DNA of 64,000 bases from Dipteris shenzhenensis (lineage: Eukaryota): NCBI GenBank assembly GCA_047967505.1, contig CM106538.1; one strand, written 5' to 3'. Each line of letters begins with the position of its first letter. The first letter of the stretch is position 1. Below, piece by piece: positions 14,400 to 60,785 of this stretch. The notes below the pieces were generated by a model. The model had not been told where the DNA came from. It saw only the letters and a list, made by a program, of their open reading frames with translations, and made no database searches. Made by a program: the position numbers and the translations under genes.

Positions 14400-17075
14400 G
14401 TTTTTGAAGCTAGAAATTATTTCTTACAAGGGACATCTAACCCAAATGGTTCTCAGCGACTATCTCGGCTATCACAAAAGGGGAAGCGGAATTCAATCTC
14501 ATCTATTGAGGAGAGACTAAAGGGAAGACCAATGAATGTGGACCTCAAAAAGTCTAGCTACACAAGAGGGAGAGCTCACATAATTCTAGACACTGCACAT
14601 CTTAAAGAGACTTGCAATACTCTTTGTTGTAGCAGAATGTGCTTGGTCACTTTTGGGGTTGCCAAATTAAGAGTGTTATGTTGAAATGAATAAAGATGAT
14701 CAAAATTTTTATTTAGCATGGTCTGTAAGACCTAGGGAAAACGATATGAACAAAATTGTGTTTGAGTACTCATTCGGTTCAAGGATTGTTTGTTGCAAAG
14801 CATATCGACTTGCACACTATCTTGGCAATGAAAGGCTAGAAAGATTATAGGCCCGCCTCTATAAAGACCCCCGCATTTGTACAGCAGGACAAATGAGAGT
14901 GCCTGGACCACATGGCAATATGGTATGCTCATGGTTGCAAGACTTTATGCAAAAACATGCCGAGGCTCTTCCAAATAGTGACCAGTTGCACTTGGATAAT
15001 TTCTCCAAGCGTGAGATCCATTCCATGTACAAGGATGCCATGGTTACTGCAAGTGATTGAGTACATGACATACCAACATTTTTGTAGGATTTGGAAGAAT
15101 GAATTCAATAGCATGAAGATACCAAAGCTTTGTCGCTTTGGTGTGTGTGCCACATGCACAGACTTGAAGGCCTTGCATACTAGAAGTCAAGGACATGAGA
15201 GAGGTGTGCGTAATGATGCCATGAAATTTTCTTCTTTTTGACAAAAAACAGTTGCTTGCAACATCTAATCATTTTCTATATTTGCAGAAGAAGCAATCAC
15301 AGGGTTGCGAATGCATCGAGAAATGCAAGCTCTAGAAAGGAAGAAGTTAGCAAAGCATCATAAGAAGAGCTACCAATAGCCTGATAAGTACATAACCATC
15401 ATCATTGATGGGATGGATCAAAGAAGACCAATCTTCCACACTTCAAATGAGTGCCCAAGGATTTGAAAGAGGAGAACTTCATCACATATCACGTGGTTTG
15501 GATGTATGATCTACCATGGTGAATTAATTGCCAAGGTTTATCCGATGACACCAAATGTAAGAAATGATCCTAATCTCACAATTTCCATTCTTAATGATGC
15601 ATTGAGGAATCTTACACAACCTCTTCCAAAAATGTTGTATGTCCAACTTGATAACACATCGAGAGAGAAAAATAATCAAGTTGTGTTGGCATACCTTTGC
15701 ATGCTTGTGGAGAAAGGCATATTTCTGAAAGTGAAATTAGGATTCCTTATGGTGGGCCACACACATGACCATATTGATCAGATGTTTAACCGGTTCTCAG
15801 TAAAGATGAGAAGGAAAGAAGCATGGGATGGGGATGCAATGATCTGCATTTTATAGGATGCATATGTGCCAAAACTCATAATTGCAAACATGGAAAAACA
15901 ATAGATTTCAGATGCTTTGTGTTTGGTGACAACGAGCAAATTGATTGAAGTATTGAGAAGCTCAACAAGTTAAGCTTTTAACACCAATTTTGAATGAAGA
16001 AAGATCAAGAAGGCACGATGTTGTTGTGGGGGAAGTTCTATTCCACATCACCGACTTGGGTTCCAGTCAAAGGATTGAAGTTCTTGAAGTGTTCTCCAGA
16101 GTGTGAGTTGTATGTGTCATCCTTACAACCTTTACAATCAGTGAGGGAGGTGCAACAAGCCATGAAGGAGGGGAGAGATGTAAACCCATAAGTTCAGTCA
16201 ATGAGATTAGAGAAACAATCCAGCATGCTGCAATGTATTTTGAAGATGTGGTGTGGACATGGTGGAATCCATTCTTTACATCCCAAATACTTATCAATCA
16301 CCAACTAAATGACCCCCAAGATGTGTCAGATTTTAGTTGGCCACAATGCATTGAACAAGATTTTGTAAATGCGCATATGAATGCTTCTTCAAGTGCACAT
16401 TTACATGCACCTTCAAAGAAGAACTATCTTGGGGAAGAGAGAGAAATGTACCTTGGAGCAAGAAAGTCCAAAAAAGCCAGGGAAAGGGTTCAAGAAATGT
16501 GGAGTGGTAGCATTGAGAACTTGGCAGTGGGTATGATGGTTGATGTGTTAGCAACAGATGATCCTAGTGGATTTCCTTTTTGGATTGCTAAATTTGTGAA
16601 AGTCGAAAAGGAAGGTTCAAAGACCAAGTCAATAGAGGTGCATTGGTTTTTCACCAAGTCCATGGATGATTTCACAGGTCGATATAACCTAGAGATGGTG
16701 GTAACAAGGAAGCGTGGCCAAAAAGGAAAGAGGGCGACAAAGAATTGTCTAAGAATTGATACTCTACAATTGGATGAGGTAGATATTTTGGTATATGCAT
16801 TTCAATTAACACAAGCCGGGCATTTGCCAAAGGAGACACAATACATAATATCCCAAAAAATTCCAAAGACATTAATCGGATGCAGTGAAGAAACGGAAGC
16901 CAAGACACTCCATGCAAAAAAAAGGGTGGTAGATAAACTTGCCCAGGTTTTGACTTGGAGAATGTTCTAGTGGATAGCCTAGAGGAGGAAGGATCTTCAA
17001 CTTCTACCGCATAAAGCTTAGGCTCTAGTGCATTTGAAGGTGTAGGATCAGAGGATGAGTACTATTCTTTGTAGG
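14400..17075 (+). mobile_element. Decayed Sola1-like (DUF7869-type) DDD transposase gene, copy A
   Basis: Cys-rich region (LCCSRMC, VCCKAY, FGVCATC). An in-frame GT-AG intron lies at 15204-15287. Catalytic motifs are IIIDGMDQ (15398-15421), QLDNTSREKNN (from 15644) and VGHTHDHIDQMF (from 15751). C-terminal FWIAK...VHWF domain. Multiple stops and frameshifts; TIRs not identified. Confidence 0.8.
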
Positions 17076-41700: not shown

Positions 41701-42359
41701 AACGTTTTTGGAAACAAAGCTATCTGTAAACTCCACCGGAGTGCGAATGATGAGCAACATAGAAGTTTTAGGACCTCTTGAGTCCACCGGAACTGACAGA
41801 TCTGCAAATGGTTGCTCCAAACTTGAGTTCCAACACCCGGGCAAAAAACGCAGAAACTGACACAGAGAGCCAGAAATCCAATGAAATGATCCCGGATTCA
41901 AGAATGAAGGTGTTTCCAAGCTCCTGAAGTAATGTGGACACCAAAAGCAAGCAATAGTTGCCTCTACAAGTCAATACGGAGTCTTTGTCATCGAATGGAA
42001 CAGGAAAAAGCTCAAAAAACGACTTTTTCTTTGAAAGCTCTTAACAGGCTCTCAAAACCACTTCACAAAGCCAAAGTGACTTTTCCAAAGGTTCCTCCAA
42101 GGTCTCTGCACACTCGGATGCAAGTAAAGTCACCCACAAAGCTTCCCACAAAGCTTCTCCTTCCTCCCACAGAGCTACTGAGCTTCAAGCATTCACGCAC
42201 GCTTAGCTAGATCACCCGGGCTCTGATACCAGTTGAGAGTGCTCTCAACGGAAGCAAGAACGGAAGAGGGAGAGAGAGAAACAGAGAGCCACACAAGTTT
42301 TGGTGGGTGCAGTATTGTACATAACTGGGGTAAAGGCACAGTGACCTTTAACCCCCATA
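38773..42359 (-). mobile_element. 5' half of a Ty1/copia element (5' LTR 42234-42359, PBS, gag, protease, integrase core)
   Basis: PBS TGGTATCAGAGC at 42231-42220. Motifs KFDGTNFSLWK, CYHCGKKGHMKKDC, WILDSGASFH, LWHCRLGH...CEHC and RTDNGGEY. Ends abruptly at ...PSYSHLR. Confidence 0.97.
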
Positions 42360-44913
42360 GGAGAGAGGGAAGGAGTCTCACTTGAGGCTTTCTCACAAGC
42401 ACAATGGGGGAATATACACAAAGGTGGAGGCTGAAAACAGTTTTCCTCTTCTTAGTTGTGAAAGCCAAAAGAACTCAAGTACAAAGAAATAGAAGAACCC
42501 TATATGTGGGTCTCAAACCAAGCTCAACTAACTAAGGTGGCATACTAACTGAGCCACGAACTAGTGTAGATAAGGATAGCTATCATCCAGCTATTATTCA
42601 TGGGCGGTGTACCAACCGCATCTCCAGCTAACAAGTCGGTGACATAAATACACAACGGTCACCCTGGCATATCGCGAGTGGAGCTCGATATCTCAACACT
42701 CCCCCTCGAGCTCAATCCCAATTCCTGCACACCAAGCACGTCTCTGAACTTGCGTAGCTTCTTTGCACCCAATGCTTTCGTGAATATGTCAGCTACCTGA
42801 TCTTCTGTGCTGACATAAACTAGATCAATAAGACCTAGTAAAACCTTCTCCCCCACATAGTGATAATGCATCTCAATGTGCTTTGTTCTAGCATGAAAGA
42901 CTGGGTTCTTTGCCAAGTGTATGCTCTTCATGTTGTCATAATAAATGACAACTGGCCCATCTGTAGACTGATGCATATCATAGAGTAGCTTATGCAACCA
43001 AGCTACCTCACATGCAGCCATTGCTGCACCCCTGTACTCAGCCTCTGTGCTCGACAAGGCAACTGTAGGCTGTTTCTTGTTGCTCCAAGTGACTGCAGCA
43101 CTCCCAAAAGAGAACACATATCCACTGGTAGATCGTCTATCAGAAATACTACCAGCCCAATTAGCATCAGTGTATCCATGCAACTGTATCTGAACCCCAG
43201 CCTCATAAAATAGTCCATACTGCAATGTGGACTTCACATACCTAAGTATGCATCTAGCCTCGGGGGGGTCACTATGTATAAACCCTCTATATCACGTGCG
43301 TTCAAGGCCTATATTTAAAGTCCCTTATCTGTAAAAAATTTCATTAATAAAATGTACCCCTTTTCTATACAAATCTGTAAATTTTTTCCAAAACTATTTT
43401 AAATAGTCCCTTATGTATATTTATTTCTGTAAATTTTAGAAATAAAAAAAATCCTTCTGTTGAACTCACGTGATAGGGTTACATATGATGAGTGACCTCC
43501 CCGAGCATCTAGCCACATCCAAATGCAGTTTCCTTGGAGCCTGCATAAACTGACTTACCAACCCAACAGCATAGCTCAAATCTGGCTTGGTAATAGTCAT
43601 GTAAATCAAACTTCCTACTATGCGTTTGTACATAGTAGGGTCTTCCAGAAGCTCACCTGCATCTGCGCTCAGCTTCACATTCTGCTCCAAAGGAACTGAA
43701 ATAGGCTTATAGCCTGTCATCCCATATTTGGACAGCATGTCCAGTCCATACTGCCTCTGCAAGAGCTGTATCCCACTTGGTGATCTAATCACCTCAATCC
43801 CCAAGAAATAACGCAGCTCTCCCAAATCCTTCATCTCAAACTTCTGCCTCAATAGCATTTTCACATGAAGGATATCTTCATCACTATCACCTGTGATGAT
43901 CAAATCATCAACATAAATGACAAGCAGCATAATCCCTTTCTCTGTTTTTCTCACATAGAGTGAGAAATCTGCCTTGGAAATCTAAAAGCCAATAGTGACA
44001 AGATACTGTCCTATCTTGTCAGACCATGCTCTAGGTGCTTGCTTCAAGCCATACAAGGCTTTCTTTAACCTGCAAACAAACTTAGGATGAATAGCATGAA
44101 CATAACCTGCTAGCTACTCCATAAAGACCTCTTCTTGCAAATCACCATGCAAGAAGGCATTCTTTACATCCATCTGATGTAAAGACCATCCCTTTCATGC
44201 GGCCATAGCAATGGCTGCTCTTATGGTTGCCATCCTTGCAACCGGGCTGAAAGTTTCTTCATAATCAATGCCATATGTCTGTGCATACCCCTTGACAACT
44301 AATCTTGCCTTGTATCTATTCACAGAACCATCTGCATTGTGCTTGATCTTATAAACCCACTTACAGCCAATTGCATTCTTGTCTTTAGGCAAAGGCACCA
44401 ATTCCCATGTAGCATTTGCATCCAAGGCATCCATTTCTTCATCCATGGCTTTCTCCCATTTTTCATTTCCCATGGCTTGCTCAAAAGAAGTGGGTTCTGG
44501 TTCCTGTATCACTTTGACCATATAGGCATAGTGAATGGCTGTAAATCCATCATATTTCAGCCTATCCACAGGATACCTAACCCTAGTAGACCTATGCAAA
44601 ATAGGCTCACTTCCAGGTGCTCTCAAAACATCCCTGGTCTTCCTTACTCCAGGTGTAACAATAGAAGGAATACCCAACTCATCATCAATGCTCTGCTCTG
44701 AGCCACTGGGTTCACCATCCACATAAGAGTGACTTGCATTCACATCAAACATGGGCTGATCTACCTTCTCTTTTCCTTTTCATGATACCTGTGTACCACT
44801 ATCTGCATTGCTTTGAGGAGATTCTCTTGATCTCAATCTGCCTGTCCATGGTGAAGTATGTGAACCACTGCTAGAGGACACTGCAGGTCCACTGATATTT
44901 TGTGATTGCTGCA
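42360..44913 (-). mobile_element. 3' half of a third copia family (RT, RNase H, PPT, 3' LTR from 42698)
   Basis: Motifs [14 protein letters not shown] and LSSTEAEY. PPT at 42699-42707. The LTR is cut at 42360 by the nested copia. The element is 5'-truncated at ~44913. Confidence 0.95.
43259..43505. mobile_element. 247-bp MITE with ~15-bp TIRs and 8-bp TSD, inserted in copia pol
   Basis: CTCGGGGGGGTCACT ... AGTGACCTCCCCGAG, with CATCTAGC at 43251-43258 and 43506-43513. Removing it restores HLDVARCILRYVK. Confidence 0.95.
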
Positions 44914-45179
44914 CGAGAGTGAGGAAGGTAACTAGAGGAGGTAAGGCAAGATGAAAGGAGTATGCTTGAGAAGAGGAGGCAAGGTTGCGGGCAAGATGGA
45001 AGGAGCAAGCTTGAGGAGAGGAAGGAGCAAGCTTGAGGAGAGGAGTAACGTAAGAAGAGCAAAGTGGAAGAAGTGTTTGCTATAGGAGAGATATAGAAGA
45101 TGAATGACTACTAGGGGATTTATAGAACTACAGACTCATAATGTGGGATGAAAGATTTAGAATAAAGAATTGGTAGAGG

Positions 45180-45720
45180 CTGAGATGACCAGATGCAAGA
45201 CCGTAATGCGAGACATGTGAGACATGTAAGATAGTGAGTACATTGAAATCTATAAAATAAAATGATGGGATGCAAGACCGTAATGGGAGACATTTGAGAC
45301 ATGTAAGATAGTGATAGTACATTGAAATCTATAAAATAAAATGATGGAACACAAGAATGATATAATTAATAGAATCTCATCATGAGATATTCTTTTAATA
45401 TAACATAAGTTAGTAATTATTAGAATCTCATCATGAGATATTCTTTTAATATAATATAAGTTAGACTTGCTGATGCAAGACCGTAATGCGAGACATGTGA
45501 GATGATAGATTTTGAGTACATTGAGATCTATAAAATAAAGTGATGGAACATAAGAATGATATAATTATTAGATTCTCATCATAAGATATTTATTGCACAT
45601 AATAAATGATAGATTTTGAGTACATTGAAATCTATAAAATAAAGTGATCGAACATAAGAATGATATAATTATTAGATTCTCATCATAAGATATTTATTGT
45701 ACATAATAAATTAGACTTTC
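45180..45720. repeat. AT-rich composite tandem repeats
   Basis: TGCAAGACCGTAATG.GAGACAT, GTACATTGA.ATCTATAAAATAAA and ATTAGA.TCTCATCAT.AGATATT each recur several times. Confidence 0.85.
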
Positions 45721-45839
45721 AAAAAAGTAAAACCTAATGTATTGTAATGAATAAATATCATAAAATATCCTAATGTATTGCAACATTTAACATAAGTTTA
45801 AAAAACACTATCATTAATCAATACAAAAAAGATAAAGTT

Positions 45840-48100
45840 CTTCAAGGACTCATGTTTCTTTCTACATGTTTTACAACTGAATAGAGTCTGATGAGTCCTC
45901 TTGAGGCTATGATTCTCTAAGAGTACATTGAATCTCTACTTGTGTGGATGGTGTACATTGAGATTCTACTTCTGGTGCAATCAGGATAGACTTAATCTCT
46001 TCCTCCTTTACAAGATGTGATGTTGTAGATGCACATTGAGTCTCCACTTCTTGTGTAGGAAGAATGCATTGAGTCTCTAATTCAAGTGTAGACTGTAATG
46101 CTTCTACTTGAGGCTGTGATACAGAAGGAGACTGAATTGTCTCTTGTTTTTCTTTGGCTCCCTCAGGTTCTTCATTGAGTCCATCATGTTGTTTCCCAAT
46201 GGTAGCAGTTAGATAGTGAACAGTCTTAGCCACAAAATCTTGTAGCTCGAGCTTGGTATATGCTTCTATTGAGACATGTTCAAAAATTTCATTGAGATAC
46301 AACATGAAGTTGTAGGCAATTCTCCACCCACTACTAAACATGTCTTTCTACTCCACTGTGAGGCGTGTCTAGAAATTTGGTTGGTCTTGATGCTCCCTGA
46401 TTTTCATAATCGCAAAAACTAACTTGTTTGCAGACCTGTCCATCATGACATATGACAAAGTGAATTTGTGTAGTAAATAGTAAGATGCATGTTCATAATG
46501 ATATGATAAAAGAACACTTACCTGAACACCCTGTGAAAGCCTGTAAATGAGTTGACAAACCAACAATGGTTGTCATCAAGATCCCATACTATCAGGCTCC
46601 AATGTGAACTACATTACCAATAAAGAGCGATAAGATTTATCACAATATTAAGTATCAATTGACACAATATTATAAATAAGAGAGTAAAAGAAAGATTGAG
46701 ACGATACTTACTTCTCATAGTATGGCATAAAGACAACTAGTATGCCATCCAAGTCTAAAGGTTGTAGAATTGAACAAACATCATCTACTGTCTTCTTGGT
46801 ATCACTAAGTACAGCTGAAAGAAGAGAATCGAGCATACAGACATGATTCTGTACTGATCTAGGAAAGTGAGATATAACCGTATTGCAGCAATAAATAAAC
46901 AAATATTAGAAGCAGATTGAATCAAATGATTGAAGTATCAAGCCAAGAGATGTTCATATCAAACCTGAGGATGGCCATCATGACTTTGTCATTAGCCTCT
47001 TTCAAAGGGTCGGAGAGGATTGTAACTTCCTCGCTACCAAAAGTCAAAACACGAGGTTGCTTGCTAATGATGACCCTAACCTCAAAAGAGCTCCCCATTT
47101 CGTCCAATACAGCGGTTACATTAGGACAACTTATGGGTGTAGCAACCAATGTTTCCTCTGGATGCTCCACCATGTTATCAATAAATGCCTTAATGATAGA
47201 TGACATAAATGCATATGGATGCAAGTCTGTATATGTCGACAATGAGGTTTCACCGCCTCTCTAATTAAAAATTTGAGCAAGGAGCAAAAAGCAGTTATAT
47301 CCGACTCTCCACCCACAACTGTGGTCATCATTCTGCTTCACTGCAGGGCATGTTACATACTCTATTTGATCTTCTAAGTCACCCTCCATTTGCATAAGTG
47401 CATCTATAGCACCTACCAACTTTCGAGCAGATCTACACATCAAAATAGAAAACATAAATGAATGTGCGCATTGCATAGGATGCATCTCATTGACATAATT
47501 ATGACACAAGTAGGTTATACTTACTCTGACACACTGCCATGGATAGATGCTATTGAATTGACAAAGAAGCATTGCTTGGCTAAGATGTCCACAATTACCA
47601 AGCTCCAATGCAAGCTGCATTATCAATTAAGAATAATTATTATTTGATATAATCCTCCACAATGTAAGGGATAAGCTAGGTAGGGATTGATACTCACTCC
47701 TCGTGATATGCAATAAAGATAACTCGCGCCGCAGTCAAATCAATAGGTTGCAACCACTTAAAAACATCATCTATGGTCTTCTGCTTATTGCTAAGTACAC
47801 TAGAAACAAGAGGATCGACCATATATGCACATCTTTGTATATATAGGGGAAGCTGTTGTAAAACCATACTGCAATAAAAAGAAAAGAATATTAGTTGATT
47901 TGATCCAATGGAAATACAAAAGATAAAGTCAGTAAAAAGTTTGTGTCAAACCTGAGGATGGCTATTATGACCTTGTCATTAACCTCTTTCTTGAAGTTTA
48001 TAAGGATTGAAATGTCCTCTTCATCGAATAGAAAAGTAAGAGGTTGTTCTCGAACTTGAAATGACTTCTCCATTTGCTGCAAGGTATGATTATTTTCTAG
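45840..48100 (-). pseudogene. Two tandem Ulp1/C48-like cysteine-protease domains (3' exons of a multi-exon gene)
   Basis: Repeat 1: EVNDKVI, LHWSLVIVD (HW 47610-47605), FVNS and KQNDDHSCGW (Cys 47317-47315). Repeat 2: EANDKVM, SHWSLIVWD (HW 46604-46599), FVNS and KDMFSSGW. GT donors lie at matching positions: 47951/46964, 47697/46711 and 47524/46521. Confidence 0.8.
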
Positions 48101-48305
48101 AGTCATCCGATGGATAGCCAGAGTAGCTTTGCTTTCTTGAGATGAGCTTTCTATATTCTCTACTCTAGCTATGTCCTCCTCCTCCTCCTCCTCTCCCTTC
48201 TCCTATAAAAGGATAAAATAATTATGAGATTCAAAATTTTAAATTAATTATAAATTTAAAAAGACCTTTGAATGAATAAAGAAAATTAAACATAAGTTTT
48301 CATAC

Positions 48306-49480
48306 CTCTACATATCTTCGTGGTCTTTTTATGTAACCTTGAGAGGCAAGGTCAGTGTCATATCCATCTTCTTCTGCTTCCTTGCTATCACTGGTGTCCT
48401 CACTATTATATCTAGAGCTTTGAACATTTTCATCATCTTTCTTGCTCTCATCATACATGATCATCTCTATGTCAGCATCCTCTTCATGTGAGATCGAACC
48501 TTTCTTATCAAACTTTATTGTGAGAGAAGCCATGGTATCAAGGTATTCCAAGCAAGCAGGGCTCTCAATAATATTTACATTTGTCCTTTTCTGATAAGAG
48601 CTTCAAACAAATGTCCCATTCGACACAATGTGACTTCCCATCTGGACGGTAGCAAAAATTCCATCATACTAATTAAAAGATCAACACTTTTTGCTGGCCT
48701 TTCATAGTGATTTGTGTTGCGATGGAGGGGACTTGGAGCTTCATGCTCTTCCAGCAGTAGTTGCAATCTCTTTGCATTCCCTCTTATATTGTTTTGTAAG
48801 GAGTGATCATTGTAAGGGCTCTTCATGCACAAGAAAAAGGTTTCTAGACTCTGTATCTTGAGACCGCATTCTCTCTTGTCCCTTTTTCTTGAGTATATAC
48901 CATTGTAAATCTTAAGCTCATTGCCATATTGTTTTTCTAGGGTAGCAGACATTTGTTCCTTGTCATCTTTATCAGCAAATATGATAATATTACATTGTCC
49001 CACTCTACCAATGGTGGTATGTAATATTCTGTCAAGGAGTTGACGAATGTCATCCGGTGATATTTCATAGACAAAGAAAAGCTGAGGTCTCTCCCAAGCA
49101 GTGTCGTCGGACAAAAAATCATTCATCAATGAAACTCCCTTGCACTCAACACTCTTTCCAGACTCTGAAATGATTTCATGTATGAAAAAAAAGCCCTTGT
49201 TCAAAGTTTTTTCTTTTCTGAGAGTGTGCTTATTTATGACTTTTTGTGCATATGCATAGACATTTTCCGGAATGTCACTTCTCATAGAGGGAGTAATTTC
49301 AGATCTATCATCTTCTACCTTCACCCATTTATGCACCCAAGCCTTCTGTTTAGCTGACGGTAAAGCTGATGCCATCTACCTCACAATGTTATGATCAATT
49401 TTACATTGGCTAATTGGAATATTTTTTTCTGCCAATAAATATTCAATTGCACTCTTTACTGCATCACGCTTGACCTGTTG
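48306..49480 (-). pseudogene. Long exon encoding a possible degenerate beta-class N6A/N4C DNA-methyltransferase-like domain plus acidic linker, upstream of the Ulp1 exons
   Basis: ORF 48575-49375 extends upstream past one TAG and downstream through a frameshift into NVNIIESPACLEYL. Donor at 48305 and acceptor near 48203 link it toward the Ulp1 exons. The domain call is a by-eye pattern only. Confidence 0.45.
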
Positions 49481-49580
49481 GATGATGCATACGGTTGTTA
49501 TTGGTTAGTGTCTAATTGAATTTTCAAACAAGTTTTAGATTTTTAAATCATTAATAAAGTAGATTATTGAGAAGAGACTA

Positions 49581-50315
49581 ATGTTCTTTATAATGGTTGT
49601 TACAGCTTGTTCGCAAAGGAAACGCACAAAGGAGATGGCTACAAAATTTATTCCGGGGATGGAGGTGATTTTATGTTGCAAAAGAGAAGTAGTTGCATTT
49701 GCTACAATCCATGAAAGTGATCCAAATTCTATTTGTCACTTTAGAAGACTTGGCGAAGATAAGGTGGCGGTTATCGTATCAAGGATTCTTAGTGCACATG
49801 TTGAGCTAAAGCATAAGTGTGGGGATATGGAAATCCTTGGAGATGTTATGCCCTATAATACTTCCAACAAAGCATTTATTGCATGGGACAGAGATGAGAC
49901 TTATCCAACACATGTCATCAGGAATACAAAGTGCATATCTTTGGATTTTAGAGTGGGAGATATTTTACAAATGTTATCATTTGCAAATAAGTATGTAGCA
50001 GAAGGTCAAGTCTTGGGATTTGAACAAGTTGAACATTGGACATTTGCGCAGATGAGAATTCAAAAAGTTACTGATGATGGTATGGATGATAACTCAATGT
50101 CATTGGATGGTCCCTACTATGAGGTAGGTAAGGATTTGAGATGGAGCATGCAATTTTTAAATATTGGAAAGACTCGGCATGTGGTTTTTAATGATAAACA
50201 TAATGTATACTACAACATCAAAGAATTGAAAGAATATGCCAATGTACCAAGCTCTATTCCTTCAAAGATGCATGATTCCAATGCACTCAACTATAGCACT
50301 GACGTCTTATCATAA
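49581..50315 (+). CDS. TNP1/En/Spm-like accessory domain ORF, N-terminal part of Sola1-like copy C
   Basis: GMEVIL...VAFATIHESDP..CHF..LG....V.V..I.....L......LGD......IAW pattern. Clear paralogue of ORF 57998-58498. Confidence 0.6.
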   Translation: MFFIMVVTACSQRKRTKEMATKFIPGMEVILCCKREVVAFATIHESDPNSICHFRRLGEDKVAVIVSRILSAHVELKHKCGDMEILGDVMPYNTSNKAFIAWDRDETYPTHVIRNTKCISLDFRVGDILQMLSFANKYVAEGQVLGFEQVEHWTFAQMRIQKVTDDGMDDNSMSLDGPYYEVGKDLRWSMQFLNIGKTRHVVFNDKHNVYYNIKELKEYANVPSSIPSKMHDSNALNYSTDVLS

Positions 50316-50336
50316 GTCGATGGGGGCACAAGGGAT

Positions 50337-50650
50337 TTGATGTGTTGCATCGAGTTGAAGCTTCAACTCGATGCAAAACATCAAGCTGGATCCTAAACTT
50401 GATGTAAAACATCAAGTTGAAGGTTCAATTTGATGTTTTGCATCAAGCTGAAGCCTCAAGTTCATGTAAAAACATCACAATTTTGAAGGTTAAACTTGAT
50501 GCAAAACATCAAATTAAAGCTCAGAATTGATGTAAAAAATCAGGTTCAAGGTTCAATTTGATGTTTTGTATAAGTGAAAGTCTAGACTTGATGTAAAACA
50601 TTGAATTTGATGTTTAAGATAAAGTTAAAGCTTAAACTTGAAGTCCAAAC
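50337..50650. repeat. ~29-bp minisatellite in mixed orientations, starting with a 48-bp near-perfect palindrome
   Basis: 50337-50384 is centred on AAGCTT with one mismatch. Units resemble AACTTGATG(C/T)AAAACATCAAGTT. Confidence 0.9.
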
Positions 50651-52562: not shown

Positions 52563-53600
52563 TACAATGGATGACTTGATAAGAAAATGTGGGAGGCAAG
52601 TTGGTGGCCATAAGGAAGGTACAGTATGCTCCATGATTATAAGAACAATATGATTGGAAGAGCTTTATTCTACCTTTCATACAAAAAGGTGGTGATGCCC
52701 CGATTGGTCATAGCACTCCACACTACTTTTGCTTTTTCTTAAAGGATGAAAAACCAGTGATGCAGTGGCAACACTATTCTAATGATACAACATGGGAACC
52801 CAAAGAACCTTACTATCTCTTAACTTCAATTTCGAGCAAAGAAATGCATCCAGTATGGGCTTCTATAAAATCATTTAACGAGAAATCCAAAGGTCAAATA
52901 GAAGGCTTAAAATCTTTTAGTACATACAAAGAGGAAATGCTTCGTAGATTTCCTAATTGGAAGCCCTCTTGGAAGGAACATATTGCTATTGTAATTAAGA
53001 AGACCTATCAATTGATAAAGGACCTTGAGAAAATTTATAAGGCAAAACGGCCTTTATTTTGGCCAAATGTTGGTAATGACTTGCACCCATCGTTTGATGT
53101 CTTTGTTAATGAGTTTGAATCACTACTTCCACGTCCATATTGTGGACCAAAGAAGAGAGAGTTTATGCCAAAAGTAGACATAGACATCCATTGTTTTGTT
53201 GCAGTTTGACCATTCGACGATGAGCATGAGAATGTTAAGTTCTGGGTTGCAAAAGTGGTGGACGTGAGCATGGATGACCAGGGAAAAGGTGCAACATTTA
53301 CAACACTATGGTATGATCCAAGGAGTAGGAAGGAGAACCAGGATAACAATACACTTTATATTGGTTGTTTGAAAAAGGAATGGATCCCAAACCATGATGC
53401 AATTTCAGAGCTTTCCATGAAGACAGTCATAATATCCTAGAAATCAAGGACAAAGAAAACAAGGAAGCACATGGGGTATGATGTAGAAGAAAAAATAAGA
53501 ATACCGCTACCAATTATTTTGTACATTACGAAGTTTTTGAAGATGCTCGCTAAGGAGGAAGTAGAAGGAGATAGTGCAAATGAAGAATGCCCATGACAAT
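52563..53600 (+). mobile_element. C-terminal half of Sola1-like transposase copy C, catalytic core missing
   Basis: IGHSTPHYF...PVMQWQHYS and LLPRPYCG...FVAV...FWVAKV...LWYDP align with copy B (IGHTNPHYF, PVMQWKHYS, LLPRKYCG, IWVAKV, LWYEP). Confidence 0.8.
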
Positions 53601-54210
53601 ACCATTCAAGCATCAATAAAAACTCGAGATGATGGTCTTCTGACGAGATTGAATGAGGATGGCATCCAAGCAACAAGTGACGATGAATTGGACATTCAAG
53701 CAAGCAAGTGTCAGGATCTCCCATTTGTACTTAACACATCTGTAAAGGCAAAATTGAGTTATTTTAAAAAGACTACAAGTCAGACTCCTTTGTACAAAGA
53801 CTCATTGAGAGCAATATTTCTTGTAAACATATGACAATGTAAAATTGCAAGCATAGCTATTACTATTTTTGGAGCACATTTAAAGAGTCTTCCATGTCTC
53901 TTGTCTATTTAAACCTTTGAATTTTTTGGGACTTCAAGAGTGTTATTGTTTTCTACATCAAAATTTAAGTGCATTCTTTTGGGTTTAGTTATATTAATAA
54001 GTCTTTATTTTGAAAGTGATTTTTCATGGATTTAAATTAATAACTCGTGATTTTTTTTTAATGTGAATAGGATTGCCAAAAACAAGAAGTATAAAAGTAG
54101 GATTTAATTGAATTTTTTGCAATTATTAGTGCACCATTATAGAGACAGATTGTAAAATTTATTATGTGGAAATGATAGTGCCAAAACCTGAACTTTTGAT
54201 TCTTGAATGA

Positions 54211-54680
54211 TATTTTCATGAAGTAAACTTTTCATTTGGGAACAATTTTTGGGATTAGTCCAAAAGTAGACATATGAGTCCAAAATTAATAAAATAAGTG
54301 TTTGGCATCCTTGTGTTTTAGCTCTCTTGAGACTATGCTAAAAACCTAATAGATATCCTCATCTGTGTGTCCAACCAACATAAACCCAACTTCAATCTCA
54401 TTGAAGATTAATCAATGAGCAATTAGCATTGAGCAAAATGCAAAAAAGAGTACATTCTTATTCTCTCGTCCGCAATTGTCTGCCTGTATTCTTAAATTTG
54501 CTGGTAGGTTACCTTTTTTAGCATGTACACTATGAATTGCCTTCATAACGGCGGACGCTACAACTTGATTGCTATTATGTAGATGCAAACACTTATTTCA
54601 TTAATTTTGGACTCATATGTCTACATTTGGACTAATCCTAAAACTCCTTCGCAAATGGAAAGTTTACTTTATGAAAATGT
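54211..54680. repeat. ~100-bp inverted repeat pair (54211-54309 / 54582-54680)
   Basis: GATTAGTCCAAAAGTAGACATATGAGTCCAAAATTAAT pairs with ATTAATTTTGGACTCATATGTCTACATTTGGACTAATC. Confidence 0.9.
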
Positions 54681-55149
54681 TGTTCTAGGGTTTATCGTAT
54701 GGTACCACGTGAGTGTAAGGGAGGGGGGTTATATAAGGGAAGGAAGGTACATTTTATAAGGTAAGGTCCCATAAATAGGGAGTAGATAAGGGAAATTTTC
54801 ATATATTTAATGCACGCAGGTGACGTCTCCTTATTACTACTAGTGAATCTCCCATGGGTGCCCCCATCCAATAACTATAAAAATAATAATAGTAGTCTCC
54901 TAACTCTAGTTCAATTTTAACACTATGAAGTGAAAATATGACACCATATGAAAAGAGTTTATTGAATTCAACATATAAGTGGTATATAGATACACCATTT
55001 TTTTGAAAAAAAAGAGTTTGTTGAATTCAATATATAAGTGGTGTATAGATACACCCTTTTTTTGAAAAACAAAGCATACAATACATTATCTTATTGGTAA
55101 TGTATAGATACACCATTTGTATGGAAAAAAGCATACAAAACATTATCTT

Positions 55150-58100
55150 ATGCATCTAAATCTCGTTCAGAGTCATCAGATTCATGTAATGTATTTGCGC
55201 TTGATGGGTCAAGACTTGCCAAATGATGTTTAATATGGACACGACTTGGATCAGGGATTGTGATACATTTTTCAACATTGTATCCATGCTTCTTTTTAAA
55301 ACTTCGTGTCCTCAATTTAGATAGCAATGAATAATTCTACTGACTTCCACCTCTGTTAATCCCTCATTATTTGGAACTCATTCATGTTTCTTTTGCAAGC
55401 ATCCCTCATAGAGTTGTTTTATTGTATATCTTCTTAGGAGATTTTTCAATGGCTTTGGTTCATACCATAAAGCTATGAATGTTATAGGAGTTCCCTTGTC
55501 ATCCCTTTCTATCTTAGCAACCTTTGCAACCCAAATTGGGACACCTTGGTCATCCAACTCTGAACCTGGGTCAATACCTGGGTCAAATGCCCAAACTGCA
55601 ACAAATAGACCCTCTTCAATCTCATTAGATGGTATAAACTCTGGTAAGGGTTTGTCTCCCTTCCTGCCACAATATTTTCGAGGTAAAAGGCATTCCTCTG
55701 CTTCCTCCATATCTATCAACATATTTATATCCAAAGGAAAACTTGGTGACCTAGCTTGTTCTAGCCAAAAGGATTCACAGTATTCAATGCTCATTAAGTT
55801 TTCTTGTCTTTCTAAAGATTGGATAAGTGCTTCGGTTGATTTAATTGTCTCCAAATTCTTAGTTGATTACTCAGGATATTTCTACATCATACTTTGAATA
55901 TGTTTAATGAAGGCTTTCAAGCCTTTCATTTCGTCTATGTCAAGTGATTTGTTTTTTGCAAGAACAAATCTAGTTTTCTCCAATGGAATCATTTGTTGTA
56001 ATAAAGCATATGACTCACTCCATAAATGATCTCCATCTACTGAGTAGTGCTTCCATTGCATCACTGGAATATTGTTATGCATGTGAAACCGAAAGTAGTG
56101 TGGATTTGTGTGTCCTATTAGGACATCATCTCCTATTTGTAAATGTGGCTCTATGAATGCTCTTCAATCTACCGTCCTCTCTAAGATAGCCACTTCTGAT
56201 TCTTCCTTGCAAGACCCTCCAATTTTTTTCCCAATTTGAAATAGCATATCCTCCATTGTCAAAACATCCATTGACTTCAACTCACTAGAGATAACACTGA
56301 AGATTTAATCTATGTCTTCATGTGTATGGCCGACAAGAAGAAAGCCAACTTCCACTTCTTCAAATATTTTCAAACCAACCAGCATAGAGCATAAAGTAAA
56401 AATAAATTTATTCTTGTTCTCTCTCCAACAATTATCAGCTTTGTATTCGCAATGTGTTAGGTAAACATTCGTAAGCATCTTTGACCTTTCTTATTGCTTT
56501 CATGATTGATGTAACAACCTGGTTACTATCATGGTCATGGAAACTATCAATCCATACATCACAAAAGATTCGGTATCCATGTACTAATACTCCACACAAG
56601 TGTGTTTTTAGTCCATGTTTGCCCTCCAATGCTGGTGGGATACATCTATATCATGGCAAAGGTTGCATTTATAGTGCTTCCATGGCATTTAAGTTTGTAG
56701 GTATTTCCATGAATTGTATGAACCACTTTTTCTTTCACCTCTACCCAGATGGTCCAGTATGTGCCATGTGATAGTCCAGTTAACCATTGATATCCTCGAT
56801 TGCAAATGGGTCTCCCATTAACCATGGGTTTCAATCTAGGTTTACCGTGTCTTGTGCTCAAATCTTAATCACTGCCTTGATCAAGAAAGCATGAAAACTC
56901 TTGAAGAAAATAGTTATATCTATTAGGCGCTGTCTTACTCCAAATACCAAGGCGTATGGCTGCACAATCATCTTTCCCAACTTTTCTAATACAAAGTCTC
57001 TTGCAACAAACTCGCATAAGCATCCTTTCCATATTCTCCTCTCATAACATTACATGTCTCTTTGGTTCTGGAATTGATGCCATGATTCTTCGCCTCTTCA
57101 CACATACTTTCTTTTTGTGAATAGTGTCTTGCATTTTCCAGTTGTAAGACCATCAAACCTCGAATCCATTTCCCTTGAATCTTCATCTCTATAATCAAAT
57201 GCTGTGTGGGTTTGAGAATTATTTGATGCCTTATAATATCTTGGAAATGGCAATTTGGTAAACATGTTCATTGATGTCAATTTGTTGCCAATGCCTCTTG
57301 AATTTTGTGACTGAACTCTTTCTCCTTCGTAACTCAAGATTGTCCCATCTATATTCTCTGGCATGCTAGCAACAATATTACAAACAACATGACAAGTCAC
57401 AGATTCTCTGCCCACTTTGCCCTGCATTTGAGTGGTAACATCATGATCATTGTCACTAATATCATCAATTCGTGTTATTGCATCACTTATCCCATCGATC
57501 TTTGAGTGTATTTTTTTTTGTGGTCCCATATTATTATTCTCAACACAAGACAAGTCTTCTATATCAGTAAGCACGTTTGAGTCACTTGCAACACAGGACA
57601 AGTCTTCTATACTAGTGAGCCTGTTCGAGTCACTTGCAGCACAGGACAAGTCTTCTATACCAGTGAGCCTGTTTGAGTCACTTGCAACATAGGACAAGTC
57701 TTCTATACCAGTGAGCCTATTCGAGTCACTTGCAACACAAGACAAGTCTTCTATACCAGTGAGTATATTTGAGTCACTTGCAACATAAGAGACATTTTCT
57801 ACATCAACATCTGTTACTATAATGTCCTCAGTACCTGTGAGCATGCCACTATGATACTCTTGATCACTACTATAGCTTCCTATCAATTTGGATTCCATTT
57901 GTATTATAGTCCTTTTCTTCTGATAATATTCTGTTGTGTCTTCCATGACATTGAAGGAAACTATCTTGGGCAAACTTGATTTCAAGAAAGCTAACCTTCA
58001 TTTACAAGTACTATGAACTTGTAGATGAGAGTCCGTAGTATTATGGACATCTATATGTGAAGTACTATCCATTGCATTTTGAATGACACCTGCACTAGTC

Positions 58101-58514
58101 AACTTAATTATCTCCACTATACAGAGAAAACTTTGAGCATAGCCCTTAAAGTTACCAATTGCTAAAACTTCTCTGGAGCAAGATAACATCTCTACTTTTT
58201 TCCCCTCAAAATAAATTTTCTTGATATCTTGAAAGTATGTCTTTGGAACAATTTCGTCTTGGTCCCAGAGCATTCTGTGTGCTTGCATATCAAATATGTC
58301 ACATTGTAAGATATCTCCCAATGTTTCAAAGTCTCCATGTGGATATTTTAAATGTACTTTAGGATTTACAACGTTGGTGATTATCACTACACATCTTCTC
58401 TCACCACAACATTGGAAATGACACACATTCATAGGATCAAGACTATGAATTCGTCCAAAAGCCACCGCTTCATTCTTCTTATATAACACCACATCCATAC
58501 CCTAAACTCCTAAA
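55150..58514 (-). mobile_element. Decayed Sola1-like (DUF7869-type) transposase gene, copy B
   Basis: Order: TNP1-like domain (57998-58498), 16-aa repeats, Cys-rich region, ADNCWRENKN (~56439-56410), GFLLVGHTHEDID* (~56346-56305), then the C-terminal IWVAKV...LWYEP domain. The DGMDQ region appears deleted near 56670. The 5' end is cut at 58514. Confidence 0.82.
57540..57790 (-). repeat. 48-bp in-frame coding minisatellite, 5 copies (SDSNRLTGIEDLSCVA)
   Basis: GAGTCACTTGCA occurs at 57579, 57627, 57675, 57723 and 57771. Confidence 0.95.
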
Positions 58515-60767
58515 CATATGCACATGTGCCAAAAGAGCTTCGAAAGAAGCTAGATCCTAAGTCTAGGAAATGCATCTTTCTGGGTTATGGTGAAAGTGGA
58601 GAGATGGGCTATCGTCTCTGGGATCCAGAAGCAAAGAAGATCATACGCAGCCATGATGTGGTCTTCAAAGAAAAGAAGATGCATAAGGCACCCATGAGGG
58701 ATGTGGAAATGAGGAGAATCACTTTCCAGGATGTGAATCCACCTACCTATGTTGATAGACAGCAAGCTGTCCATGCACCAAATGTGCAAGAAATGGTACC
58801 ACCAAGTACTCCCACAGGTATACAATCAAGGGTAGATGATGGATCATCTATTGGTGGAAATGATGAGCCAAATGTGGCTGATATGCAAGTGGGACAGCAA
58901 GCTGAAATGCCCTTGAGAAGATCATCTAGAGTGTCTAGACCGCCTGATAGGTTTGTTCCAGGGGTAGACTATGTGATGCTTACTGATTGCGGGGAGCCTT
59001 CTTGCTATAGAGAGGCTATGATGCGTGAGGATCAACGCAAGTGGGAGTATGCTAGGCAATCAGAGATGAGTTCACTTATGAAGAATAAGACTTGGGACTT
59101 GGTTTCTTTGCCACATGGAAAGAAAGCATTGCCATGTAAATGGGTCTACAAAATGAAGGTCACAGGTGATGATGTGCCTAGGTACAAGGCCCGTTTGGTT
59201 GCTAAAGGGTTCAAGCAAGAGAAGGGTGTGGACTTTGATGAGATATTCTCTTCAGTTGTGAAGATGATCACACTTAGATGCATGCTTGGACTAGTGGCAT
59301 CAGCAAATATGGAGCTTATGCAGATGGATGTCAAGACAGCTCTCTTGCATGGGGATTTGCATGAGGAAATTTACATGGTGCAGCCGAAAGGCTTTGAAGA
59401 AAAGGGCAAAGAGCATTTAGTTTGCAAGCTAAAGAAGAGTCTCTATGGTCTTAAGCAAGCACCTAGAGAATGGTATCAGAAGTTTGATGCTTTCATTCGG
59501 TCCCAGGGTTTTAGAAGGAGTGAAATTGATCACTGCCTCTACACTAAAAGGGCTAAGGATAATAGCCTGATAATCTTGGCACTATATGTGGATGATATGC
59601 TATTGGCTAGCAAGAATACTTATGAGCTAGATGCTTTAAAGGCCAAGTTGCATGAGGCCTTTGATATGAAGGATTTGGGACTTGCAGGTCATATTCTTGG
59701 TATGCGCATCACGCGTGATCGGAGTAGGAAACTCCTTTGGCTTTCACAAAAAGAGTATGTTACAAAAGTATTACAGCGTTTCAATATGGAGGGGGGGAAG
59801 GCAGTGAGTACTCCATTGCCTCCATATGTGAAACTGAGTCATACAGATAGTCCCAAATCAGATGAGGAGAGGGCCATGATGGCCAAGGTTCCTTATGCAT
59901 CAGCAGTTGGGAGTCTTATGTATGCTATGATAGCTACTAGACCAGACATTGCATTTGCAGTGGAAGTTGTTTGCCGGTATATGGCTAATCCAAGAAAGAG
60001 GCATTGGGAGGCAGTTAAGTGCATCATGAGGTACATGAAGGGTACCAAGGAGATGTGCATTTGCTTTGGTAAAGGAGACATGCGTGTACTTGGGTACACA
60101 GATTCAGACTATGCAGGGCATGTGGATAGTAGGAGATCCACTTCCGGTTATGTGTTTACCTTTGCAGGTGGTGCAGTGTCGTGGATGTCTTGCGGACAGA
60201 AGTGCATTGCTTTGTCTACCACAGAGGCTGAGTATGTTGCAGCCACAGAGGGTTGCAAGGAGGCTATATGGCTTGATCGGCTAATGGGAGATTTGGGGAT
60301 TCATACAGGTGTACCGACATTGCATGGTGATTCCATGAGTGCTATTCAGCTAGCATGGAATCCGGTCTTTCATGCAAAGACCAAACACATTGAGGTCAGG
60401 TACCATTTCATCAAGGAGGTACTTGAGGACAAGCGCATAGAGCTTGTCAAGGTTCATACTGATGATAACCCTGCAGATATGCTGACGAAGAGTCTACCTA
60501 GTCAGCGGTTTGAGTATTGTCGTGTATTGATGGGCATTGGATAGTATGCTCACTGGTTGTTCTCCTTAAAGGCACATTGTCCTTTAAGTGGGAGGTTGTG
60601 GGGGTTAAAGATCACTGTGCCTTTACCCCGGTTATGTACAATACTCAAACACATATATAAATGAATGAAAAAGAAGATTAGGGTGGTTCTGCACCCACCA
60701 AAACTTGTGTGGCTCTTTGTTTCTCTCTCTCCCTCTTCCGTTCTTGCTTCCGTTGAGAGCACTCTCA
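58515..60767 (+). mobile_element. 3' half of a Ty1/copia element (integrase C-terminus, RT, RNase H in an open 672-codon frame; PPT; 3' LTR 60597-60767)
   Basis: Motifs KLDPKSRKCIFLGY, LPCKWVYK, QMDVKTA, LYVDD and LSTTEAEY. PPT AAGTGGGAG at 60586-60594. The LTR matches 42234-42359. Confidence 0.97.
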
Positions 60768-60785
60768 TCTCCCACTATCTTCACA

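Follow-up and report, generated by a model that had tools for sequence, protein, structure and literature searches.

A decayed copy of a repeated Ulp1-like gene with an orphan N-terminal region, probably carried by a transposon, in Dipteris shenzhenensis

Introduction

In plants, transposon-carried Ulp1 genes are a recurrent phenomenon, and the one studied case, VANC-Ulp1, ties them to an escape from DNA methylation. Ulp1 domains are known in MULE/VANDAL (KIU) elements (PMC13317346) and in CACTA elements (PMC2528002). In the KIU/Kaonashi genes, which belong to the non-TIR VANDAL MULEs of eudicots, VANC is joined to an Ulp1 domain acquired by transduplication (PMC13317346, PMC5735166); the legend to Fig. 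5 of PMC5735166 gives DUF1985 and DUF287 as the two conserved VANC domains. The CACTA-ULP elements of grapevine and rice carry Tnp2 plus ULP1 (PMC2528002).

Here we describe a multi-exon gene on the minus strand (49504-45907) of a stretch of 64,000 nucleotides of Dipteris shenzhenensis DNA (contig CM106538.1), which we call the window. An earlier note on this DNA had proposed that the gene fuses a degenerate methyltransferase-like fold to tandem Ulp1-like proteases. From our analysis, the locus is likely to be a decayed member of a repeated family of Ulp1 genes that is probably carried by transposons, with an N-terminal region specific to its lineage.

Gene Structure

The 5' part of the gene holds an open reading frame (ORF) of 266 codons, which starts with the ATG at 49375; when the window was shuffled 200 times, no ORF of at least 266 aa arose, the largest shuffled ORF being 218. 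The same frame stays open on the 5' side up to 49504, with the TAG at 49378-49376 as its sole break. At 48582/48581 the frame slips by one base into that of ORF 48300-48602, where the acidic stretch is encoded, and the shifted frame is stop-free from the end of the 266-codon ORF to the donor of intron 1. The long exon with one TAG and one frameshift that had been described earlier is therefore present, and every peptide quoted from it is found in the translation. The region 49376..49504 either forms a 5' leader or belongs to the coding sequence of a longer exon; if translation truly begins at the ATG at 49375, as it may, the first TAG falls within the leader.

Four GT-AG, A+T-rich introns are predicted, namely intron 1 and the introns at 47951-47869, 47697-47615, and 47524-47433, and exons A-D, when spliced, give 227 open codons. 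The claim that the long exon is followed by an acidic linker and by exons linked through GT-AG introns is supported: N-terminal region, linker, and tandem Ulp1-like exons lie on one strand, their phases are compatible, and the contiguity is also seen in a related contig (record 8 of run X1, see below). The features are as follows.

49376..49504, minus strand: open in-frame stretch of 42 codons 5' of the ATG, ended by the TAG at 49378-49376
48575..49375, minus strand: 266-codon ORF, the exon claimed to be methyltransferase-like; orphan and alpha/beta-looking (ORF length against shuffles)
48581..48582, minus strand: frameshift, the window being one base short of X1 record 8 (contig comparison and frames)
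48306..48580, minus strand: remainder of exon 1 past the frameshift; the N-terminal region goes on for about 25 residues and gives way to an acidic linker rich in Asp/Glu/Ser, with a basic KRPRR patch at its end (ORF translations)
48203..48305, minus strand: intron 1, GT..AG, 103 nt, 84% A+T, phase 0 to phase 0, predicted from the DNA
47952..48202, minus strand: exon A, poly-Glu stretch and beginning of C48-like repeat 1
47698..47868, minus strand: exon B, repeat 1
47525..47614, minus strand: exon C, repeat 1, with the His box HWSL and Asn at the position of the triad Asp (Peptidase_C48 profile and PDB alignment)
46965..47432, minus strand: exon D, with the Gln..Cys box KQNDDHSCGW of repeat 1 and the premature TAG at 47263-47261, continuing through the segment between the repeats into the opening exon of repeat 2
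46712..46882, minus strand: exon B', repeat 2, its acceptor changed from AG to AA at 46884-46883 (comparison with repeat 1)
46522..46608, minus strand: exon C', repeat 2, with the His box SHWSL and Asn at the Asp position (Peptidase_C48 profile)
45907..46435, minus strand: exon D', repeat 2, with TAGs at 46371-46369 and 46350-46348, its Cys being replaced by Ser
45185..45716, no strand assigned: tandem repeats of about 51-104 nt, directly downstream of the gene

The second C48-like repeat lies 987 nt below the first, with a nucleotide identity of 68%, and the homology between the two spans the TAG at 47263-47261 (tail ORF against 47332-47108, E 4e-6). Exon D' ends in a C-terminal tail with ETQC-type repeats and a stop at 45909-45907. 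It should be mentioned that the earlier note had overlooked the TAG at 47263-47261, the alternative start at ATG 49375, and, in repeat 2, the TAGs, the AG-to-AA acceptor, and the Ser for Cys.

The Ulp1-like Repeats

When the exons were scored singly and unspliced, the His-box exon of repeat 1 matched Peptidase_C48 with an E of 0.0076 (16.5 bits, profile positions 96-120) and that of repeat 2 with an E of 0.18 (12 bits, profile positions 95-120), both being below the gathering score of 20.7 bits. Exon D, which carries the Cys box, had no Peptidase_C48 match in Pfam. All four PDB matches of the 29-aa exon C at E<=10 were CE-clan proteases with the His aligned; HWSL aligns to HWLL of the CE-clan chains, and the His box is present in both repeats. 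For the oxyanion Gln and the catalytic Cys, both placed by eye, repeat 1 has the sequence KQNDDHSCGW, and repeat 2 has a TAG at the Gln position and a Ser at the Cys position. The catalytic Asp, about 17 residues past the His, is absent: VNSI aligns to FDSL, and repeat 2 likewise reads VNS. Because the triad Asp is an Asn in both repeats, activity is uncertain even for intact copies. Two C48-like domains had been claimed for this gene; the tandem repeats with their His boxes speak for them, but every match to Peptidase_C48 is sub-threshold.

Related Contigs and Decay of the Window Copy

Copies with about 98% identity are found in contigs of other public runs, four of which were compared with the window. 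There are 25 matching contigs in run X1 and 49 in run X2 (80-100% identity, some of which cover the same part of the window), all of them DNA contigs that may derive from more than one genome; in the identity classes of 99 and above, 95-99, 90-95, and below 90, they number 3, 13, 3, and 6 in X1 and 5, 19, 11, and 14 in X2. Record 8 of X1 covers 48125-49489 and has the same contiguity from exon 1 to the Ulp1-like part. It carries one extra base behind 48581 (depth 18.2/18.2), so that the frameshift is absent there, and the TAG at 49378-49376 is a CAG both in this record and in one X2 contig. By this comparison of contigs, the frameshift and the first TAG are private to the window copy. The remaining X1 indels within predicted exons are of 3 nt and 12 nt; a 12-nt in-frame insertion lies in exon A of a related contig, and the sole other 1-nt X1 indel, at 47922, sits in predicted intron 2.

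Nine of the 17 differences placed in the N-terminal ORF are synonymous, against an expected fraction of 0.29 (p 0.036), in a test that covers 17 sites among the differences listed, with 110 others outside it (26 of 31 placed for record 8). This hints weakly at purifying selection on the N-terminal exon. In the linker (48306..48580), just one of seven placed differences is synonymous, so no signal of constraint is seen there.

In total, the window copy has at least three in-frame stops in coding exons, one frameshift, a lost acceptor, and a Cys-to-Ser change in repeat 2. It is a pseudogene, unable to make the protein because of the frameshift, the stops, the destroyed acceptor, and the lost catalytic Cys of repeat 2.

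Surroundings and Termini

Transposable elements abound in the surrounding DNA, which includes copia elements, TNP1-like ORFs, and a DUF7869 gene. The sole DUF7869 match in the window is at 15467-15856, about 30 kb from the gene, and the ORFs adjoining the gene have a weak similarity (E 3.6e-4) to the ORF after this match. A co-occurrence with DUF7869, which the earlier note had named as a point to check, thus holds only at the level of the window as a whole; our literature search returned no paper mentioning DUF7869. A TNP1/En/Spm-like ORF (49563-50315) lies on the opposite strand, 60-190 nt upstream of the gene, and an inverted paralogue of it matches PF03017 with an E of 0.0053. Since similarity to the best related contig ends at 49489, the linkage between the gene and the TNP1-like ORF is not established.

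The CACTA-containing 18-mer at 49493-49510 has no inverted partner that we could find, no terminal inverted repeat was detected in 44800-49700, and no target site duplication (TSD) or transposase attributable to the gene was found; a MULE transposase domain was not seen among the 46 ORF and exon translations scanned. With no transposase, TIR, or TSD tied to the gene, its assignment to a transposon comes from copy number and precedent, which make such an origin the most likely one. The tandem repeats at 45185-45716 may have a subterminal position or a regulatory role in the element, and related contigs extend below 45801.

The N-Terminal Region

No relatives of the 266-aa ORF were found. An exhaustive phmmer search of 1,835,955,588 proteins gave 0 matches at E<=0.001, word-index protein searches gave no relative, and scans of genome, viral, and metagenome contigs gave 0 confirmed cases among 59, 2, and 53 pattern matches, respectively. 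In the window itself, tblastn returned only the ORF and chance matches at E>=1.6. Matches to DUF3110 (E 0.24) and to a 17-kDa lipoprotein chain (E 0.071) were set aside as noise.

Beta-class amino-methyltransferases have two hallmarks, the catalytic motif IV, (D/S/N)PPY, and the SAM-binding motif I, FxGxG. Neither occurs in the N-terminal translation, in agreement with the earlier note, which had called DPPY and FxGxG unrecognisable. That note nevertheless suggested that the N-terminal exon could be a catalytically dead, bacterial-type beta-class N6A/N4C methyltransferase fold, which would have taken on a role in DNA binding and become coupled to deSUMOylase domains, a reading that we regard as very improbable. 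No methyltransferase profile, including N6_N4_Mtase (PF01555), matched at E<=10 in Pfam, NCBIfam, or PHROGs, and phmmer against the PDB at E<=10 gave no methyltransferase for the N-terminal ORF. A custom N6_N4_Mtase HMM, built from 45 members, scored 1.3 bits against the ORF, a value reached or exceeded in 56 of 1000 shuffles (0.0 bits for the reversed sequence), and 0.4 bits against a 400-aa read-through (as high in 139 of 1000 shuffles). Its best alignment does recover part of the proposed pairing of segments, with LLDRIL..CNIIIFA against the motif after DPPY, IYNGIYSRK against the W-K strand, and SLETFFLCMK against the next strand, but it is non-significant, and the claimed match in motif order stands only to that extent. 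With hhalign the probability was 0.7-1.0% and the score 19.0, against 15.2 +/- 2.7 for shuffles (largest 24.5, n=150), over 10 columns only and on a motif other than the one in the earlier note. In the AlphaFold models, strands and helices are predicted to alternate at residues ~60-160, which would suit such a fold; the pLDDT values are 45.1 and 51.2, so that the structural test is a weak one. With these two models, Foldseek returned nothing from the PDB at E<=0.001, and the rows listed contain no DNA methyltransferase; one O-methyltransferase was among the 50 rows listed for the 207-aa model (rank 50, 52 columns, E 0.86), and no methyltransferase was among those listed for the other. The Atlas gave no methyltransferase for the N-terminal region either. 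The profile, hhalign, and Foldseek comparisons, the last with poor models, thus lend no support to the proposed fold; a remote relation to it is conceivable but unsupported, the models being too poor to decide for or against any fold. Our literature search found no paper combining Peptidase_C48 with N6_N4_Mtase.

It is just as hard to credit a distant kinship of the N-terminal region with alpha/beta domains of the MPN/JAMM or Sec1 type. The top three and about 12 of the 50 Foldseek rows listed for the 207-aa model are BRISC, COP9 signalosome, proteasome-lid, and RadC chains, which we take to be MPN-type subunits, but all have E >=0.017 and TM-scores <=0.30, for a model with a pLDDT of 51. The Atlas gave feature matches of 0.89-0.91 to Sec1 clusters, with a recognition value of 1574 (below 2300) and 148-167 shared features (below 170), and we rejected Sec1 as a chance-level result. 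No JAB, RadC, or Sec1 match was found in Pfam at E<=10, and the two leads contradict each other; the MPN-like result we retain as no more than a lead.

Interpretation

In the reading that we prefer, of a decayed transposon-borne Ulp1 gene, the product of an intact copy would be about 940 residues long. Its N-terminal region, which is without detectable relatives and of mixed alpha/beta structure by prediction, would take up about 290 of these; a disordered, acidic linker that includes a basic patch would come next, and two C48/Ulp1-like cysteine-protease domains in tandem would complete the protein. By analogy with other transposon-carried Ulp1 genes, the intact protein might act in the nucleus as a deconjugating enzyme for SUMO or another ubiquitin-like protein, and the N-terminal region might supply the targeting. 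The best reading of the gene is as a likely analogue of the VANC-Ulp1 (KIU) and CACTA-ULP genes. An anti-silencing role would be speculation, for which VANC-Ulp1 (KIU) is a real precedent.

A closer functional equivalence to VANC-Ulp1 (KIU), in which the N-terminus would be a fast-evolving, sequence-specific DNA binder that guides the protease to the non-coding tandem repeats of the element and so counters silencing, is possible but unlikely. The repeats directly downstream of the gene and the orphan state of the N-terminal region, which is like that of fast-evolving proteins, would fit it, but neither DUF1985 nor DUF287 was detected in Pfam at E<=10, the ORFs scanned contain no MULE transposase, the region has no recognisable DNA-binding motif, and the proposal is one of analogy. 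We see a slimmer chance that the ~290-residue N-terminus is a new fast-evolving module for chromatin or DNA targeting, joined independently of the eudicot KIU to a tandem Ulp1 pair in another transposon lineage, which would make it a second, convergent deSUMOylase-based anti-silencing device; such a module might work as VANC does, or it might be an enzyme fold that has lost its activity, of a methyltransferase- or MPN-like kind. It is improbable that the locus consists of two units, with exon 1 as an unrelated captured or neighbouring fragment upstream of an Ulp1 pseudogene and the 48305-48203 splice unused. The lack of coding constraint in the linker and a splice predicted from DNA alone leave room for this, but the splice has a canonical donor and a canonical acceptor, keeps to phase 0, and lies between two open frames, the shifted frame runs stop-free to the donor, and X1 record 8 retains the arrangement over 48125-49489.

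As a decayed, probably transposon-borne Ulp1 gene, the locus has a modest practical value, since the window copy is dead and the methyltransferase fold unsupported. Its different N-terminal partner and duplicated protease would add one independent recruitment of Ulp1, and intact copies would give a handle on the targeting of the protease.

Comparison with Known Systems

Among the described systems, KIU/Kaonashi (PMC13317346, PMC5735166) shares with this gene its place in a repeated element, a fast-evolving N-terminal part, a C-terminal Ulp1/C48 region, a multi-exon structure, and tandem repeats in the adjoining non-coding DNA. The gene described here differs in being without DUF1985 and DUF287, in its two tandem C48 repeats, and in having no MULE transposase nearby among the ORFs scanned; it is known from sequence alone, and we do not attribute to it a KIU-like anti-silencing activity. 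With CACTA-ULP it shares an Ulp1-like region on cut-and-paste elements (PMC2528002), and here a TNP1/En/Spm-like ORF adjoins, but the gene itself contains neither Tnp2 nor another transposase domain. The likeness to beta-class N6A/N4C methyltransferases (PF01555, e.g., Escherichia coli YhdJ) is confined to the order of hydrophobic segments; the gene lacks motifs IV and I and any significant profile, profile-profile, or structural match. It resembles the host ULP/SENP proteases (Peptidase_C48, clan CE) in the His box, aligned by Pfam and by PDB chains, and in the Gln..Cys-Gly-Trp box of repeat 1, placed by eye, and it is set apart from them by the Asn for the triad Asp, the tandem duplication, matches below the Pfam cut-off, and its state as a pseudogene.

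Structure and Decay of the Gene

The gene studied here lies on the minus strand (49504-45907) and consists of an N-terminal exon, an acidic linker, and two tandem C48/Ulp1-like repeats, designated repeat 1 (upper) and repeat 2 (lower). The copy in the window is a pseudogene, one member of a repeated family that carries Ulp1. Its main features are as follows.

49375-48575 (-): stop-to-stop ORF of 266 codons, ATG start directly after the TAG at 49378-49376
48582/48581 (-): 1-base frame shift into the frame of the ORF at 48300-48602
48305-48203 (-): predicted intron 1, GTATGA donor, TTATAG acceptor, 103 nt, 84% A+T, phase 0 to phase 0
47951-47869, 47697-47615, 47524-47433 (-): three further predicted GT-AG introns, 67-73% A+T
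45909-45907 (-): stop at the gene end, after a tail with ETQC-like repeats
45185-45716: tandem DNA repeats beyond the gene end

The frame of the 266-codon ORF is open for 42 codons further upstream, up to 49504. In 200 shuffles of the window the longest ORF had a mean length of 147 aa and a maximum of 218, and this frame is therefore not a product of chance. Past the frame shift, the frame of the ORF at 48300-48602 adds roughly 25 residues of ordinary composition before an acidic stretch, rich in Asp, Glu, and Ser, with KRPRR at its end. This acidic linker contains DIEMIMYDES (48460-48500, minus strand), a short hydrophobic core between acidic residues that, judged by eye, is like a SUMO-interaction motif.

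Exons A-D, which follow intron 1, give 227 open codons when spliced, after which a TAG (47263-47261) interrupts the frame. Because the homology between the repeats extends past this TAG (tail ORF versus 47332-47108, E = 4e-6), the stop is premature rather than natural. Repeat 2, which is located 987 nt below repeat 1 and is 68% identical to it in nucleotides, is the more decayed; its acceptor matching 47870-47869 reads AA (46884-46883), it contains two TAGs (46371-46369 and 46350-46348), and Ser occupies the position of the repeat-1 Cys in SCGW.

When contiguous single exons were scored, the repeat-1 His-box exon (29 aa) matched Peptidase_C48 at profile positions 96-120 (E = 0.0076; 16.5 bits versus a cut-off of 20.7), and the paralogous exon of repeat 2 (28 aa) matched the same positions with E = 0.18. 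The repeat-1 exon had only four PDB sequence matches at E <= 10, all to CE-clan proteases, in which HWSL..VNSI of the exon stands opposite HWLL..FDSL. The His-box matches in both repeats and these alignments make the C48 likeness of the repeats probable, at a formally sub-threshold level. In both repeats, the catalytic His is retained and the triad Asp is replaced by Asn. The exon with KQNDDHSCGW had no family match and no PDB match.

Related Copies

DNA contigs from four coded public runs were compared with the window at identities of at least 80%. Many contigs matched (25 in run X1 and 49 in run X2), and their spread over every identity class points to a repeated family. One X1 contig of 3577 nt (record 8) spans 48125-49489 with 31 differences from the window, so that in this copy, too, the N-terminal exon is directly followed by intron 1 and the beginning of the Ulp1 part. 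Behind 48581 it carries an extra base absent from the window, and the frameshift is gone; at 49378, the TAG of the window is changed to CAG, likewise in X2. Comparison with these contigs shows both lesions to be private to the window copy. The other exon indels of record 8 measure 3 nt (49123) and 12 nt (48052), and its sole remaining 1-nt indel (47922) falls inside predicted intron 2, a pattern that fits the predicted exon-intron model.

Similarity ends at 49489 both in a short contig of run X3 and in record 8, and beyond this point record 8 continues for 2.2 kb with no resemblance to the window. Either copies vary in their upstream region or the window copy was cut at this position; the gene may be complete at its 5' end if the ATG at 49375 is the start. 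Among the differences listed, 25 could be placed in exon 1, with 110 further differences outside that table. In the 266-codon part, 9 of the 17 placed differences among those listed are synonymous (versus 0.29 expected; one-sided p = 0.036), and in the linker 1 of 7 among those listed. These 17 placed sites among the differences listed give a slight indication that the N-terminal region is under constraint.

Nature of the N-Terminal Region

An exhaustive phmmer search of 1,835,955,588 representatives gave no match to this region at E <= 0.001, by our estimate about 45-50 bits, and weak relatives may be hidden below that threshold. Word-index protein searches and scans of three contig collections found no relatives.

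The earlier note had proposed a degenerate N6A/N4C methyltransferase fold fused to tandem Ulp1-like proteases. Every peptide quoted there is found in the translation, and the architecture of N-terminal region, linker, and tandem Ulp1-like exons holds; the methyltransferase homology is unsupported. That METHYLTRANSFERASE idea drew no support from profile, profile-profile, sequence, or structure searches, the outcome that the note itself had named as refuting it. No methyltransferase family appeared in Pfam at E <= 10, in NCBIfam, or in PHROGs, and phmmer against the PDB at E <= 10 returned one unrelated lipoprotein and no methyltransferase.

Because library filters hide weak scores, we built our own N6_N4_Mtase HMM, seeded with E. 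coli YhdJ (N6_N4_Mtase confirmed at E = 2.3e-64). The YhdJ query collected 74 viral loci (24-98% identity), and the 45 near-full-length ones, minus one with stops and plus YhdJ, made up 45 sequences with 281 positions. With every filter disabled, the 266-aa ORF reached 1.3 bits, a score equalled or exceeded by 56 of 1000 shuffles (reversed sequence 0.0); for the 400-aa read-through, in which X marks the two breaks, the values were 0.4 bits and 139 of 1000. The best local alignment pairs the same segments as the earlier note, which explains the impression of a match, and is not above chance. An hhalign comparison gave a probability of 0.7-1.0% over 10 columns, to the stretch before motif IV and not to the one proposed, with a score of 19.0 versus 15.2 +/- 2.7 in shuffles (n = 150).

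AlphaFold without an alignment yielded models with a pLDDT of 45.1 (whole ORF) and 51.2 (49198-48578, the stretch suggested for modelling); with such models the structural test is low in power, and neither had a Foldseek match in the PDB at E <= 0.001. The whole-ORF model placed glycosyltransferase and clamp-loader chains at the top, non-significantly. For the 49198-48578 (-) model (pLDDT 51), BRISC, COP9-signalosome, proteasome-lid, and RadC chains came top (E 0.017-0.9, TM <= 0.30), and one O-methyltransferase stood at rank 50 among the matches listed. We take the BRISC, COP9-signalosome, proteasome-lid, and RadC chains to be MPN-type; this MPN-fold lead is non-significant, and has thematic interest beside a Ulp1 protease. 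In the protein-language-model Atlas, recognition was low (1574) and Sec1 clusters scored 0.89-0.91. Three weak, mutually contradictory leads are the expected output of an orphan alpha/beta region, and methyltransferase homology is highly improbable.

Genomic Surroundings

With 40% G+C the window is A+T-rich, and most of its long ORFs are fragments of copia-type retroelements. These features mark it as a plant-like eukaryotic region rich in repeats. Neither a terminal repeat nor a transposase could be linked to the Ulp1 gene. Truncated copia pieces lie on both sides of the block in inverted orientation.

49563-50315 (+): 250-aa ORF upstream of the gene; inverted paralogue at 57998-58501 (-), 33% identical
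52643-53440 (+) / 56169-55330 (-): second inverted ORF pair, 35-38% identical
15467-15856 (+): DUF7869 domain (E 4.3e-37), in a multi-ORF gene with 13064-13459 (+) and 16107-16970 (+)

The first pair is TNP1/En/Spm-like, with a match of the ORF at 57998-58501 (-) to PF03017 (E 0.0053), and the second pair weakly matches (E 3.6e-4) the ORF following the DUF7869 domain. An ORF upstream of that domain has weak kinase-like matches, to APH (E 9.4e-5) and Pkinase (E 6.8e-4), both short of the cut-off. The two diverged pairs (33-38% amino acid identity) are inverted about a centre near 54400 and look like two old related elements, tail to tail. At that centre, an inverted repeat (54202-54304 / 54586-54688; 103 nt, 87% complementary, 281-nt spacer) may be a small hairpin element. 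Just past the TNP1-like ORF at 49563-50315, the stretch 50324-50645 holds an array of 31-nt units, mutually direct and inverted. At 57098-58501 (-), the TNP1-like ORF and the next ORF (299 aa) share one frame with a single stop between them, and the latter holds five 48-nt tandem units (57493-57806) encoding a repeated 16-residue peptide.

The ends of two opposite-facing copia-type elements (42231-42357 and 60599-60770) are 96-98% complementary and their RT regions 66-76% alike, a contrast that hints at recombination or at an LTR family common to both. An uninterrupted copia pol ORF of 676 aa (58514-60544, plus strand; RVT_2, E 5.6e-74) is 5'-truncated where it abuts the TNP1-like ORF.

Comparison with Known Ulp1-Carrying Elements

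A literature search found no paper naming 'DUF7869' and none with both 'Peptidase_C48' and 'N6_N4_Mtase'. Passages of PMC13317346 describe Arabidopsis non-TIR MULEs that carry transduplicated Ulp1 domains (Kaonashi/KIU), some VANC anti-silencing genes fused to Ulp1, and similar sequences in MULEs of grapevine, melon, and rice. The conserved VANC domains are DUF1985 and DUF287, and VANC is characterized by fast evolution and tandem-repeat targets, according to passages of PMC5735166. Passages of PMC2528002 describe five CACTA families of grapevine with ULP domains, as well as Tnp2+ULP1 proteins from rice. In its general kind, the present gene belongs with these transposon-carried Ulp1 genes. 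Compared with what these passages describe, however, it is without the DUF1985 and DUF287 of VANC-Ulp1 (KIU) and without the Tnp2 of the CACTA Tnp2+ULP1 proteins, and it differs from both KIU and CACTA-ULP genes in having an orphan N-terminal region and two tandem protease repeats.
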